A stretch of DNA of 64,000 nt from Alphaproteobacteria bacterium (GTDB lineage Bacteria > Pseudomonadota > Alphaproteobacteria > UBA8366), in assembly GCA_021774335.1 (NCBI GenBank), contig JAJFJD010000005.1, positions 17,632 to 81,631 of the forward strand, written 5' to 3'. Both the position numbers and the translations under genes were made by a program. This document shows, piece by piece, positions 10,607 to 64,000 of the stretch; position 1 is the first letter of the stretch; each line of letters begins with the position of its first letter. The notes under the pieces were generated by a model. It was not told where the DNA came from. It was given only the letters and a program-made list of their open reading frames with translations, and did not search any database.

Positions 10607-11647
10607 TCAAAAGTTCGATACGCGGACGGAGCATTCCTGGGTCGTGCTGAAAGTCGGAATAAAGGCGGAATGCTTGCCGGGACCGCCCGCGACGAGAATC
10701 TGGATCCTCTCGGGTGACGCGGACAGATAAAGATGATCATTCACGAGCCTGTTGCCCCGTTCCCCCGCATACAGCAACTGCTCGGATGCCACACGGGAAT
10801 AGTGGATCTTGGAATCTTCGTAGAGCTTCTGTTGGATGTCCGGGATCGACCAGCCGTCCCGATCAATCGTCTGCGCATGCTCTGGCCCAAGCGCGATCAC
10901 ATACGGACACGAGCCGCGGATAACATTCACGCCGGTCTGCGAAATCGTGCCTGCGATCGTCGTCAAGATAGCGTCACCGGACGTACTGGCATGATCGTTG
11001 AGGTTATGCGGAGGTTCGCAAGCAAGCATCGTTACGACACTGTCCGTAGCATCAAACCCCCGGCGCACGTGATAGGGTTCCCATGGGCTATCTTCCTCGT
11101 TCTCACCGAAACAAAAGCTGTATTTTGCCGGCGATCCTTGGGTCGCCCGGTCCATCTCGCCCGGCGTCGCGCCGCCGATATTCATCAGTGTTAGTTGGAG
11201 GGCGCGCCCGATTGTTGCATTGGCCCTTGCCCCCTGACCGAAACAGTTGCTGCCGCAATTAATATCCAGAGTCTTCCGCAGCGGCCCGCTGACAATCATC
11301 ATCGGCGCGCAGGAATGCGTCGTCGCCAGTGTTCCATGCAGATTGTAGTCCGGCTGAAGGACGGCACGCACGGCCGCCACGATGACGGGAAGATACTCGG
11401 CCCGGCACCCCGCCATAACCGCATTCGCCGCGATACCTCGAATCGTCGGAATAACCTGGCGCGGCGACATGGGCGGGAACGGCTCATTGTCGCCACGGCA
11501 GATTTCGGCAAATCGTTCGACCACACTCTCGGTCGGCATGATCAGGGGCAAGCCATCGCTCCAACCCTGTTCAATCGCAAAATCATTCCATTGCGCGGGA
11601 TCGAGGTCGCCGACCTCGATCACCTCGTTTTCAGTTTGGTCTGTCAT
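10607..11647 (-). CDS. Conserved hypothetical protein (346 aa)
   Basis: Long ORF with genome-typical composition and no antisense competitor with motifs. Segments GLPLIMPT and ANAVMAGCRAEYLPV look conserved, but I cannot name the family. Confidence 0.65.
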   Translation of the reverse strand: MTDQTENEVIEVGDLDPAQWNDFAIEQGWSDGLPLIMPTESVVERFAEICRGDNEPFPPMSPRQVIPTIRGIAANAVMAGCRAEYLPVIVAAVRAVLQPDYNLHGTLATTHSCAPMMIVSGPLRKTLDINCGSNCFGQGARANATIGRALQLTLMNIGGATPGEMDRATQGSPAKYSFCFGENEEDSPWEPYHVRRGFDATDSVVTMLACEPPHNLNDHASTSGDAILTTIAGTISQTGVNVIRGSCPYVIALGPEHAQTIDRDGWSIPDIQQKLYEDSKIHYSRVASEQLLYAGERGNRLVNDHLYLSASPERIQILVAGGPGKHSAFIPTFSTTQECSVRVSNF

Positions 11648-11841: not shown

Positions 11842-12300
11842 TCAAGGGACGTCCACGCCGCCGAGCTCTTCCTCAACCAATCGCCTTAACCAATCGCCGA
11901 CCGGCTCTTGATTCTTGGCCGCGGCGAGTTCAATTTTTTCCATCATGGTTTTTGAAACTCGCAGATCGATTGGGACGGTATCGTGCCCGACCGGCGGTGG
12001 AGCACCGAATAGCTGTTCGATCTGCTTAATATGGTCATGATCCTCCAACCATCGGCATGCTTCGGCCGCCGTCAGGGGAATAATTTCTGTCCCACGAGCC
12101 GGTTTCCCTCCTCGGAGAATGGCAGAATAAAAAGACTCCACGCCTCCTTCGGCCGCCAGAAACAAAACCCCATTATCGTTACGAAAGAGGGCCTCTTTGT
12201 AGTCCTCTTCATCGCTTGCCCCGTCGTAGCGGCTTTCGGCAATAAGCTTTGCCTGTTCAGTATTATAGAGATGCCCGCCGACGACTCGCTTTACCTTCAC
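11842..12300 (-). CDS. Hypothetical 152-aa protein with ribbon-helix-helix-like C-terminal tail
   Basis: GTG start preceded by AGGAGTAGGAG. The C-terminal IDLRVSKTMMEKIELAAAKNQEPVGDWLRRLVEEEL has the beta-strand/helix/helix pattern of RHH domains. Last gene of the AT-richer cassette. Confidence 0.6.
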   Translation of the reverse strand: MKVKRVVGGHLYNTEQAKLIAESRYDGASDEEDYKEALFRNDNGVLFLAAEGGVESFYSAILRGGKPARGTEIIPLTAAEACRWLEDHDHIKQIEQLFGAPPPVGHDTVPIDLRVSKTMMEKIELAAAKNQEPVGDWLRRLVEEELGGVDVP

Positions 12301-12335: not shown

Positions 12336-13064
12336 TTATTCTTCAGGAGCTACTGCCGATTGGAAAACAGGCTCACCGGCTAACCAGCGCTCGCCCGCGT
12401 CTGGTTGATCGAGAGCGATATGTAGCGCGGCAATCAACTCGAGAAAATCGGACGAAAGACCTTCTTCTTTCAATCCGGACGACAACCCCTCCAAAACATC
12501 AGAATAGATGTTCTTTTGAGCACTATCATGAGGGATCAGCCTCCAACTCCTAGGGTAGTTCAAATCCTGTGCACAAATTGCCCAGTTGTAAGAGTTATAG
12601 CCGCGGCAAACGAGCGGACGTGCTGGGTACACAGAGCACTGTCCATCCGAAAGAAGAGGACAGAGCACGCGCGCGAAAAGCCGCTCGTAGGAGTTCATGC
12701 CTCGCGTTTGGAGCTCCGCCTCGTGAACCCGTGCCTTTAAGGCTTCCATCTCTTCTGGTGAAAAATTTTCGTTTACGTATGAAACAAGACTGAGCAGCTC
12801 CGGTACAGAAATCTCAACTTGGAGATGGCAACAGTAGTTGCACCCTGCTCGGCATGCCGCCGGTTTTGACGCACCTTTAACGCGCCGCACCGCAGCCAAA
12901 ACGCCACCGGCCAGCGAAACTGAGCTAGCAAAAATATTATTGAGGGTTTCGATCGTATATCCGCGCCGTAACGCCTTTATGACCAGGCGTCGCGCGGCAT
13001 CTGCAATTTTTTCTTCCGGGTCTTCATGAATGTGATTCTGCGAAGTGCTCGTTTTCTCAGCCAT
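12336..13064 (-). CDS. YkgJ/UPF0153-family cysteine-cluster protein (CxxxCxxCC; FliB-like family)
   Basis: AAGGA SD. The N-terminal cluster ACRAGCNYCCH and the second half CPLLSDGQCSVYPARPLVCRGY match the PF03692-type zinc/iron-chelating domain architecture. Confidence 0.8.
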   Translation of the reverse strand: MAEKTSTSQNHIHEDPEEKIADAARRLVIKALRRGYTIETLNNIFASSVSLAGGVLAAVRRVKGASKPAACRAGCNYCCHLQVEISVPELLSLVSYVNENFSPEEMEALKARVHEAELQTRGMNSYERLFARVLCPLLSDGQCSVYPARPLVCRGYNSYNWAICAQDLNYPRSWRLIPHDSAQKNIYSDVLEGLSSGLKEEGLSSDFLELIAALHIALDQPDAGERWLAGEPVFQSAVAPEE

Positions 13065-13132
13065 ACGATTTTTCCTTGCGATTCTTCAACAAGCGAACGC
13101 AGACGAGTAAAGACGACACTCCAACATTGATC

Positions 13133-13171
13133 ACCAAACAAACAAAGGGCCGGCACACTCAGACCGGCCCT
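13133..13171 (-). terminator. Intrinsic terminator after the polylysine mini-protein gene
   Basis: 8-bp GC stem agggccgg/ccggccct (13146-13153 / 13164-13171) with a 10-nt loop. On the minus strand it is followed by UUGUUUGUUUGG. Lies 22 nt downstream of the stop at 13193. Confidence 0.7.
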
Positions 13172-13192
13172 CAATCTTAGTATATTTTGTTG

Positions 13193-13483
13193 TTATTTTT
13201 TCACGGCTCTCTTTTTTCTCACCGGACGCTTCTTCACAGGGCGCTTTTTAACGGGGCGCTTCTTCACGGGTCTCTTTTTCGTGGCTTTCTTCTTCGTGGC
13301 TTTCTTTTTCGATGGGCTCGCGGCTGCCGTTGAGAACAGCAAACCGTCCTTTGTAAGCGAAGCCATAAGCGGCGCTGCAAACGCTACGCCGGTTACCAAG
13401 CCTGTAAGAAGCTTACGCCGCGTATCGTCGACGTTCTTCGAGAGCTCCGGATGAAGGGTATTCTTCTGATTATCTTTTGGCAT
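13193..13483 (-). CDS. Tat-signal mini-protein with polycationic KKRPV-repeat tail (96 aa)
   Basis: GGGAGA SD. Twin-arginine motif DTRRKLLTG plus hydrophobic region LVTGVAFAAPLMASL. Tail SKKKATKKKATKKRPVKKRPVKKRPVKKRPVRKKRAVKK has 18 Lys and 6 Arg in 39 residues. Confidence 0.75.
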   Translation of the reverse strand: MPKDNQKNTLHPELSKNVDDTRRKLLTGLVTGVAFAAPLMASLTKDGLLFSTAAASPSKKKATKKKATKKRPVKKRPVKKRPVKKRPVRKKRAVKK

Positions 13484-13546
13484 AGATCATCTCCCATTCC
13501 CCAATATTCGGGAATCCTATGCCATATTCAGATACCTTACACGGGA

Positions 13547-13561
13547 GCAATGGTTGTGCCA
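13547..13561 (-). promoter_or_regulatory. Sigma54 (RpoN) -24/-12 promoter element TGGCAC-N5-TTGC
   Basis: The minus strand reads tacattaagTGGCACaaccaTTGCtcccgt, which fits GG-N10-GC exactly. It lies about 64 nt upstream of the ATG at 13483, is intergenic, and is correctly oriented. Confidence 0.6.
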
Positions 13562-13676
13562 CTTAATGTAACACAACCACCATTGGCGTGATTCTCGCCA
13601 TTACAATGAACCGACCGAGCCGACGATATGAAACAGACACCACGTTCATGTATCGGTGGCTAAAAAGTTCTTCGGC

Positions 13677-13958
13677 CTATTTTGTCCCGAAAATTACGAA
13701 TTCTTCTTCGACGAATTCATCGACCGCATCGCGCACGTCTTGCTCCGGTGGCTCTGACAAATCAAATTGCTTTTGCAAAAGTTCGGCGATTGTCTCGATC
13801 GAATTTTGCCCATCGCACAATGTCAGTACCAAACCGGCAGTGTGGTTTAGGTAATGCACCCTGCCTCGACAATTGTCGTTTACGACCAAACCTTCCTCTA
13901 CGGAGGAAATCTCTAATCCATCAACCTGCTTTGGAAAGCTGGGCATCGGTCCAATCAT
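13677..13958 (-). CDS. PqqD-family protein (RiPP recognition element / peptide chaperone fold)
   Basis: RVHYLNHTAGLVLTLCDGQNSIETIAELLQKQFDLSEPPEQDVRDAVDEFVEEEFV matches the PqqD (PF05402) signature (xLNxTaxxixxLcDGxxtxxeIxxxLxxxy....DVxxfl). The true start may be M1 or M5. Confidence 0.8.
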   Translation of the reverse strand: MIGPMPSFPKQVDGLEISSVEEGLVVNDNCRGRVHYLNHTAGLVLTLCDGQNSIETIAELLQKQFDLSEPPEQDVRDAVDEFVEEEFVIFGTK

Positions 13959-14219
13959 GCTCCGTAAATATACATTTTAGTCGGAAGGATTATCCCCGAA
14001 CGCAATAAAACGGCAAAATTGGTGGGAGCCGCCTCACGCTCGACGTACCAGAATAACGCCGATAAACACACAGAACGTCAGCCCCGCGCCCCTAATATGG
14101 CCGGCGCGATTAATTGGGTTTCCCGCCATTCTTTCCGCCACGCCCAAACTGCCGCGGCACTGCCACCAACAAATGCCGGCAGGACGCAATCGCGATCATG
14201 GCTCGGCCTAGACGCCGCC

Positions 14220-63210: not shown

Positions 63211-64000
63211 CTAATTTTTGGATTTGCTCAGGTCGTCCAGGTGCTCTTGCAACTTGGCGCGGTCCGGCGACCCGGCGGGCAGGCTGTCGAGCGCCTGTTG
63301 CATCATGGCCCGGCCTTCCTCGACCTTTCCGCTCGAAATCTCGGCACGGCCGACCAGCCAGAGCCCTTCGATATTCTTCGCATCGAGCGCCAGCACTTTG
63401 CGCATCACGGCGACCGATTCCGGCGTCTGCTTGTGGTCCGCTGCGGTCCGCAGGGTGCGGGCGTAGAGCATGAGGATGTCGACATTGTCCGGTGCCAGCC
63501 GGGCGGCGTTGGCCATAGCGTCCTTTGCCTCGCCGTGACGGTTCAATACCGTGTAGGCGCGACCGAGGCGCATCCATCCTTCCAGGTCGTCGGGTTCCTC
63601 TTTCAGGCGGCCGGCCAGTTTCGCCACCATGCCTTCGATCATCGCCGCGCGATCCTCGGGAGACATCGATTGTGCGGCAGCCACGTCGCCGCCACTTGGT
63701 CCCGGCGGTTTCTGCGCGGCAGCGGGCGGCGGGATTATGCTGTCCGGCTCGATGCCCGCGGCTTGGGCCGCGTTGATCGCGCGCTGCCGTGCGACCTTGG
63801 CCCAGGGAGCGGTCGGCGGCGAATCTTTCAAGAGCGCAAGCCATCGGTCGAGCGCGGCCCTGTTGTTGCCGGCCTGTTCCTCGGCGATGGCGAGATAGAA
63901 ACGGGCGCGCGGTTCGCCGGCGGATTTTTCCAGCGCGGAATCGAATGCGGCGCGGGCCGCTGGCGTGACCACACCATTGTTGGCCAGGACCAGCGTCTCG
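63211..64000 (-). CDS. ccmI: Cytochrome c-type biogenesis protein CcmI/CycH, TPP-free TPR-containing C-terminal part (N-terminus beyond the right window edge)
   Basis: The frame stays open to position 64000. RARFYLAIAEEQAGNNRAALDRW, GWMRLGRAYTVLNRHGEAKDA and LWLVGRAEISSGK are TPR-like repeats, with a Pro-rich linker, as in CycH/CcmI. Confidence 0.7.
   Translation of the reverse strand, partial: ETLVLANNGVVTPAARAAFDSALEKSAGEPRARFYLAIAEEQAGNNRAALDRWLALLKDSPPTAPWAKVARQRAINAAQAAGIEPDSIIPPPAAAQKPPGPSGGDVAAAQSMSPEDRAAMIEGMVAKLAGRLKEEPDDLEGWMRLGRAYTVLNRHGEAKDAMANAARLAPDNVDILMLYARTLRTAADHKQTPESVAVMRKVLALDAKNIEGLWLVGRAEISSGKVEEGRAMMQQALDSLPAGSPDRAKLQEHLDDLSKSKN

Follow-up and report, generated by a model that had tools for sequence, protein, structure and literature searches.

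RiPPs that carry a general signal peptide are known but highly unusual: bufferins and oxazolins are exported through Sec, and in one case the lipoprotein pathway is used (PMC12452194, PMC12710340, PMC13056109). The Tat pathway, for its part, accepts unstructured hydrophilic passengers of up to 100–120 aa (PMC6708511). Among proteins that concern lysines, the flagellin lysine methyltransferase FliB has eight conserved cysteines and a [4Fe-4S] cluster, which is bound by a CX4CX3CC motif that its authors likened to the PF03692 motif (PMC8598068), while the mycobacterial HBHA has a C-terminal lysine-rich domain whose lysines are methylated (PMC8467707). The literature that we searched contained nothing on a Tat-type RiPP leader, on PqqD together with YkgJ, on CxxCxxCC proteins together with RiPPs, or on the HPr-rel-A system defined in NCBIfam. 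Here we set beside these systems a four-gene block found in a 64-kb stretch of DNA (64,000 nt, hereafter the window), in which a small gene encodes a twin-arginine peptide with a strongly basic tail.

The peptide is encoded by a 96-aa ORF of the minus strand (13483 to 13193, with the TAA stop), and its sequence is identical to that given in the initial annotation. The twin arginine at residues 22–23 precedes 20 residues without charge, LLTGLVTGVAFAAPLMASLT; the h-region of 19 residues has a mean Kyte–Doolittle value of 1.83. Recounting the tail gave the composition claimed before, in that 24 of the final 39 residues are basic (18 K, 6 R) and there are four KKRPV units, which start at residues 69, 74, 79 and 84. 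The ORF can be divided into a leader module of 55 codons (13319..13483, minus strand), with an invariant LHPE and VD in its n-region, the RR codons 22–23 (13420..13415), the h-region at codons 25–43, a conserved GL.F and an AxA at codons 53–55 (13327..13319), and a core of 41 aa with a net charge of +24, SPSKKKATKKKAT(KKRPV)4RKKRAVKK (13196..13318, minus strand; stop codon 13193..13195). The initial annotation had counted about 15 neutral residues between the h-region and the tail. These residues fall inside the conserved module that ends in AxA and not in the mature peptide, and the predicted product is therefore the 41-residue polycation only.

The small peptide gene is real, and both of its halves are under constraint. 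Alignment with 13 homologues (60–100% identity) showed residues 1–56 to be highly conserved, with L10, H11, P12, V18, D19, R22, R23, the block T31–M40, G47, L48, F50, A53 and A55 invariant, while the tail varies in the number and type of its units (KKRPV vs KKKAT) and keeps its basicity. For codons 1–56, dN/dS against four orthologous loci is 0.08–0.23, with values of 0.13–0.21 for a neighbouring gene. In the tail, the four 15-nt KKRPV repeat units are identical to one another at only 11–12 of 15 positions, with the differences at synonymous positions, and across the last 26 codons 26–96% of synonymous sites differ between lineages vs 1.7–12% of non-synonymous sites; that is, synonymous change is near saturation and amino-acid change almost nil. 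The earlier suggestion that selection has acted on the peptide, as opposed to recent slippage, is thus correct, since synonymous divergence of the tail far exceeds non-synonymous divergence. Two candidate explanations, a spurious ORF and an origin of the repeats by recent slippage, were rejected on the dN/dS and codon evidence.

The peptide does not stand alone: a large leader family of some 100 non-identical proteins includes it as one of its branches. A profile of the leader (residues 1–57) searched against 1.84 billion representative proteins returned 75 relatives, and a scan of metagenomes for the module returned 80 loci, which together with one locus already in hand (L092) make up a set of 81 (L092–L172) containing 106 module ORFs, 100 of them non-identical. 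Residues ~8–55 of the peptide correspond to a single conserved module with the family consensus VDESRRDFLRK..GTAFAxPLMASFSMDGL....AxA, and the wider pattern common to the relatives is (V/I)D(E/D)xRR(D/K)F(L/I)(R/K)K..GTAFAxPLMASFSMDGL....AxA, past which the sequences diverge completely. The C-termini that follow the module are very diverse: some are short tails, which may be basic, acidic, rich in His or rich in Gly/Asn, and others are domains of 130–150 residues. No model in Pfam or NCBIfam covers the leader family, and we found no paper on it in the literature searched.

The larger leader-borne domains of 130–150 aa are of two kinds, one Cys-rich and helical (CxNQT...CC; P0086, P0095, P0110, P0113, P0135) and the other beta-rich (P0092, P0097, P0100, P0102, P0106, P0121). 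The beta-rich domains show F.A.L...G.a.f.l...Y.L motifs and are possibly CHRD-like. Since the leader is joined to domains of this size, the system handles whole proteins too, and not peptides alone.

The neighbourhoods of the module genes are informative as well. Of the 81 loci, 46 have a co-oriented gene of the PqqD family upstream of the module gene, and the others are mostly on contigs too short to tell. Other recurrent neighbours are GT2-TPR (44 loci), an HprK-like P-loop protein (21), Mannosyl_trans3 (14), GT4 (13) and NTP_transf_5 (7); no exporter or leader protease occurs among the recurrent neighbour families. Module genes stand in tandem arrays of two to five in many loci (L106, L108, L122, L123, L134, L158, L162, L168 and L172), and the window has a single copy. 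An N-x-S/T sequon falls within the first 20 core residues in 67 of the 100 cores of the 81-locus set, as compared with 29.7 +/- 4.2 in shuffles. In this sister branch a locus has one to five of the small genes, and their very short cores (6–20 aa) bear [S/G]-N-x-[S/T] with few exceptions, for example in L162:5779-9269, L122:3930-6564 and L154:1101-7311. The sister branch resembles a system for glycopeptides or glycoproteins that is guided by the leader and akin to the NCBIfam HPr-rel-A cassette. The genetic coupling of the leader family to a dedicated peptide-binding protein of the PqqD family is solid.

In the window, the genes of the block are ordered on the minus strand as PqqD-family gene, peptide, terminator, YkgJ/CxxCxxCC gene and the gene of a 152-aa protein (p152). 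This four-gene block is kept in all close relatives, while their flanks differ; those relatives that bear a name are all MAGs of uncultured Alphaproteobacteria. The predicted PqqD-family (RRE-type) peptide chaperone (13677..13958, minus strand) has 93 aa counted from the first ATG, or 89 aa as called in the relatives, and matches Pfam PqqD (PF05402) at 38.7 bits (cut-off 23.4). It also scores 94.6 bits against an HMM made from the PqqD genes that adjoin module peptides in the metagenome loci. It lies directly upstream of the peptide gene, an arrangement found in all close relatives, and together with its co-occurrence with the leader across the family this backs the RRE link that the initial annotation had guessed at.

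The peptide gene is preceded by what is presumably a regulatory region (13484..13590, minus strand): ~105 nt 5′ of the ATG are nearly invariant in five lineages, and the rest of the spacer is variable. Within it we identified a sigma-54-like element, TGGCAC-AACCA-TTGCT (TGGCAC-N5-TTGCT; 13561..13546, minus strand), which fits the sigma-54 -24/-12 consensus, is 78 nt away from the start codon of the peptide gene and, when checked across the leader family, occurred in no clade but that of the window. This element overlaps a 9-bp palindrome, TGGTTGTG(T/C)-N11-GCACAACCA (13579..13551, minus strand), in its right arm. Closer to the start codon, a conserved 5′UTR hairpin, ATTCCC-N7-GGGGAAT (13515..13496, minus strand), abuts a Shine–Dalgarno sequence, GGGAG (13495..13491, minus strand), located 7 nt 5′ of the ATG, and this hairpin may be a candidate for control of translation or mRNA stability. 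A predicted intrinsic terminator (13145..13172, minus strand) follows 20 nt past the peptide stop, with a 10-bp stem that includes seven GC pairs and a T-rich tail; across five lineages its stem is invariant and its loop variable. The spacer between this terminator and the YkgJ start (13065–13144, minus strand) is almost invariant in five lineages whose synonymous coding sites have diverged far, which suggests a second promoter or an element controlling read-through. A scan of 12900–14100 against Rfam gave no match, the 5′UTR hairpin and the upstream region included.

Two other genes of the window were considered. Directly downstream of the block lies a gene for a 346-aa protein (10607–11647, minus strand), which has no match in Pfam or NCBIfam; we do not count it as part of the system, as it is present only in window-type genomes (L002) and absent from L001 and L012–14. 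At the edge of the window, an ORF at 63214–63999 (minus strand) matches the HMM of the sister-branch GT2-TPR weakly (E 2.6e-5) and probably encodes a GT2 or TPR protein of no relation to it.

The third gene of the block encodes a YkgJ/CxxCxxCC protein of 242 aa, a putative Fe–S protein (12336..13064, minus strand; PF03692 at 29.9 bits, cut-off 23). Eight cysteines are invariant among 62 sequences (C71, C75, C78, C79, C135, C143, C153 and C164), of which the first four form a CX3CX2CC motif (C71-x3-C75-x2-C78-C79). Searching its profile against PDB sequences gave nothing meaningful, the matches being hydrophobin Cys strings only (E 0.25), and its AF2 model (pLDDT 90.7) has no match below E 0.6 among PDB folds. 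Given the likeness of the Cys motif to that of FliB, our leading guess is that a core so rich in lysine undergoes modification of its lysines. The FliB models in NCBIfam were matched neither by the window YkgJ (E <= 0.1) nor by its 62 homologues (E <= 10), and the link to FliB thus stays an analogy only.

The fourth gene encodes p152 (11842..12300, minus strand), which lies downstream of YkgJ in all close relatives and is predicted from its model to have an N-terminal beta-sheet plus helix and a ribbon-helix-helix-like C-terminus. It matches no family, and a PDB sequence search gave no meaningful match; its own family is narrow, with 24 proteins, one of them tagged HicB/PF05534. PUR-alpha was rejected as an uninformative fold relative, given that this best PDB match of the AF2 model (pLDDT 75) reached only E 0.14 and TM 0.23.

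What ties these two proteins to the peptide is their distribution. Five subtypes of basic core, namely the KKRPV core of the window and those of P0012, P0087, P0093 and P0130, retain PqqD and adjoin a YkgJ/CxxCxxCC protein. Outside the window clade, this adjacency of YkgJ and a basic-core peptide recurs in L173, L175, L177 and L179. The order is PqqD–peptide–YkgJ–p152 around P0012 (KKKAT tail) and PqqD–peptide–YkgJ around both P0087, which has a KKAAKK-type tail and a leader well diverged from that of the window, and P0130, which has a short basic tail. Around P0093 (KAAKKAAAKKAK tail) the order is peptide, 392-aa protein, PqqD, and this 392-aa protein (L174–L176, e.g. L175:857-2035) is a natural fusion of a YkgJ domain (41% identity, E 4e-56) with a p152 domain (36% identity, E 1e-23). 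Such a fusion suggests a substrate-binding partner, and p152 could be either this or a regulator. P0084 has PqqD upstream and its contig stops after the peptide, and P0124 has no recognizable neighbour on its 921-nt contig.

The converse comparisons agree with this pattern. The 64-kb window contains no glycosyltransferase, HprK-like kinase, NTP_transf_5 or GT4 gene of the sister-branch set, and the 81 loci, mostly of the N-x-S/T type, contain no homologue of YkgJ or p152. Around more distant homologues of YkgJ (at most 43% identity), checked in 77 genome loci and for P0035 and P0056, there is no PqqD, basic peptide or p152, and the operon is therefore not a general feature of YkgJ. The coupling of basic cores to YkgJ and, where the contig is long enough, to p152 is solid. 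A leader and a PqqD that stay constant while the enzyme set varies with the chemistry of the core follow the logic of an RRE-dependent RiPP system, and a role of the peptide as a scaffold for lysine modification, one of those first proposed for it, would fit the strict link between basic core and YkgJ.

The initial annotation had also claimed a Tat-like N-terminus, and here the outcome is favourable with some reservation. The window peptide has the motif T21-R22-R23-K-L-L-T, in which RR is invariant among 14 close homologues, an uncharged and moderately hydrophobic h-region, and an AxA whose A53 and A55 are invariant. In the wider family the motif S-R-R-D-F-L-K/R fits the textbook S-R-R-x-F-L-K, with KR in place of RR in a minority, and the AxA stands at the exact end of the module; the TRRKLLT of the window is best described as a weakened form of this family consensus. 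Searches of Pfam and NCBIfam with the window peptide, Tat profiles PF10518 and TIGR01409 included, returned no match at E <= 0.1. In a scan of 33 family members with a limit of E <= 10, PF10518 matched five (best E 0.0026), TIGR02811 17 and TIGR01409 seven, all below cut-offs, and the only recurrent library matches of these members were to Tat-signal models, plus the Tat-containing N-termini of Rieske proteins. Because such models are short and weak, their missed cut-offs lower the Tat claim only slightly. Ordinary Tat signals are much less conserved than this module is over all its 45 residues, and the module may therefore be read also, and maybe mainly, by PqqD or the enzymes. Nor is a disordered polycation as odd a Tat passenger as it had been made out to be, because Tat takes unstructured hydrophilic passengers, and positive charges clustered behind a signal peptide are a hindrance to Sec.

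The reading that we prefer, at a probability of about 0.45, is that the product of the ORF is a RiPP-like precursor and that its leader serves at the same time as a Tat-type export signal, with cleavage after A53-A54-A55 and a polycation that is handled by YkgJ and p152. We found an adjacent RRE/PqqD gene, a conserved leader with a hypervariable core and, in relatives, multiplied precursor genes, as expected of RiPPs; the leader on unrelated C-termini, its tandem copies, a core type that co-varies with the enzymes and the lack of a recurrent exporter or leader peptidase speak for the same reading. In the proposed scheme, PqqD would bind the leader in the cytoplasm and hold the peptide for YkgJ and p152, whose target would be the Lys/Arg-rich core; the leading guess is that they modify its lysines, for example by methylation. 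The twin-arginine leader would then take the hydrophilic, unstructured polycation through Tat, this route being proposed because a run of positive charges makes a poor Sec passenger, and signal peptidase I would cut after A53-A54-A55 to leave a 41-residue, +24 peptide in the envelope. Once released, the peptide might attach to polyanions (LPS, DNA, and polymers that are extracellular or associated with peptidoglycan), or its targets might be competitors. The terminator past the peptide gene would keep precursor transcript in excess over enzyme transcript, as is often the case with RiPP clusters. What we infer in this scheme is the export by Tat, the cut at AxA and the modification of lysines. 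The bolder claim, that this is the first ribosomal-peptide family with a working Tat-signal leader read by PqqD before export, and that YkgJ (with p152) is a new leader-guided lysine- or arginine-modifying enzyme in the basic-core branch, which would give the large YkgJ family (UPF0153) a first class of substrates outside FliB-like proteins, we regard as doubtful.

Other explanations share parts of this evidence. The peptide could be a polycation secreted unmodified through Tat (or Sec), with PqqD only a TorD/NapD-like chaperone that proofreads or holds the signal peptide, and with YkgJ and p152 serving regulation, immunity or redox functions. The Tat-like features of the peptide would suit this as well as they suit a precursor, as would a YkgJ family without demonstrated enzymology, and a regulatory p152 could be seen in its ribbon-helix-helix-like C-terminus, in the one homologue tagged HicB and in the conserved upstream region, whose palindrome is a possible regulator site. 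However, secretion without modification leaves aside the strict co-variation of basic cores with YkgJ in five peptide subtypes and the YkgJ–p152 fusion, and the sister branch couples the same leader and PqqD to obvious modifying enzymes, the glycosyltransferases; we consider it unlikely. A different possibility is that the peptide stays inside the cell, its hydrophobic segment serving either to anchor it in the membrane (N-out/C-in) or as a helix that binds proteins, and its polycation binding DNA, RNA, polyphosphate or acidic lipids in the cytoplasm, as histone-H1-like nucleoid tails do. By the positive-inside rule, +24 charges placed C-terminal to the sole hydrophobic segment favour a cytoplasmic tail, and moving such a charge outward against the membrane potential would be costly, which both count against export in our own reading. 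In composition, the KKKAT/KKRPV repeats are similar to H1-like tails that bind DNA, and the best fold matches of p152, insignificant as they are, are nucleic-acid-binding PUR repeats. Yet the same leader also carries acidic, His-rich and Gly/Asn-rich tails and folded C-termini of 130–150 aa, a range that better fits a targeting or recognition signal, and the AxA is invariant exactly at the end of a module whose family consensus fits SRRxFLK, so that retention in the cytoplasm strikes us as quite unlikely.

Small cationic peptides also invite comparison with toxin–antitoxin-like or defence modules, in which this one would be a membrane-active toxin neutralized by p152 (HicB-like RHH) and PqqD. 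The HicB-annotated homologue of p152 and the tight terminator that the peptide gene has to itself would be in keeping with such a module, but the tail is not amphipathic, the block occurs in different chromosomal contexts among housekeeping-type neighbours with no signs of mobile elements, and the leader family is tied elsewhere to glycosyltransferases; we hold this explanation to be very improbable.

If the precursor reading is true, Tat would be a natural route for small, disordered peptides that have been processed in the cytoplasm, and RRE proteins of the PqqD type would act as holding factors that bind signal peptides. The widespread YkgJ/CxxCxxCC family (PF03692) would likewise gain a concrete, testable substrate, and a naturally exported +24 peptide would be a candidate envelope or matrix binder or antimicrobial. 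The conserved leader offers a handle for mining genomes for unannotated precursors, with N-x-S/T glycopeptide-like cores and polycations alike.

How far, then, does the locus resemble systems already described? Ordinary Tat signals are like the leader in the motif of the window and family, the length of the n-region, the hydrophobicity of the h-region and the AxA, the matches to Tat-signal HMMs being weak only; they are unlike it in that here homology and conservation extend over the entire 45-residue segment, PLMASFSMDGL included, with its own PqqD partner, KR in some members and no curated model reached. HBHA and histone-H1-like tails share K/A/P-rich short repeats that bind polyanions, but HBHA has no homology to the peptide, is larger and lacks a Tat-type leader and a PqqD or YkgJ partner. 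FliB, too, concerns lysines of a protein substrate, and its CX4CX3CC and eight conserved cysteines can be set beside the CX3CX2CC and eight invariant cysteines of YkgJ (PMC8598068). There is, however, no detectable sequence similarity to FliB models, and substrate and context are unrelated, so the likeness is a lead only.

The HPr-rel-A system (TIGR04352, HprK-related kinase A; TIGR04353, PqqD chaperone) finds its counterpart mainly in the sister branch, with a PqqD, a P-loop protein weakly like HprK kinase A, and NTP_transf_5, and TIGR04353 is the fourth-best NCBIfam match of the window PqqD. In contrast, the scores are far under the cut-offs (23 vs 200; 23–30 vs 35), that of the window PqqD for TIGR04353 being 23.1 vs 35, and the window is without kinase, nucleotidyltransferase or glycosyltransferase. 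Similarly, the GT2-TPR of the sister branch has the SunS family (GT2) of the glycocins as its best NCBIfam match, at 57.6 bits, which is far under the cut-off of 350; the cores there bear N-x-S/T sites, as opposed to Cys in helical hairpins, and the branch of the window has no glycosyltransferase.

Further parallels are the bufferins and oxazolins (MNIO plus a DUF2063 partner, Sec) and the RiPPs of the lipoprotein pathway, in which an export signal likewise replaces the classical leader, the partner is RRE-like, and there is no dedicated exporter or protease (PMC12452194, PMC12710340). Unlike in these, the signal here is Tat-type and not Sec or Lol, the PqqD is free-standing, the partners are YkgJ and p152 (glycosyltransferases in the sister branch) in place of MNIO, and the cores are without Cys. 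On this comparison, an RRE-guided precursor with an export-signal leader would be of a known kind, and what would be new at this locus is the Tat-type signal, the polycation core and the putative YkgJ Fe–S partner.
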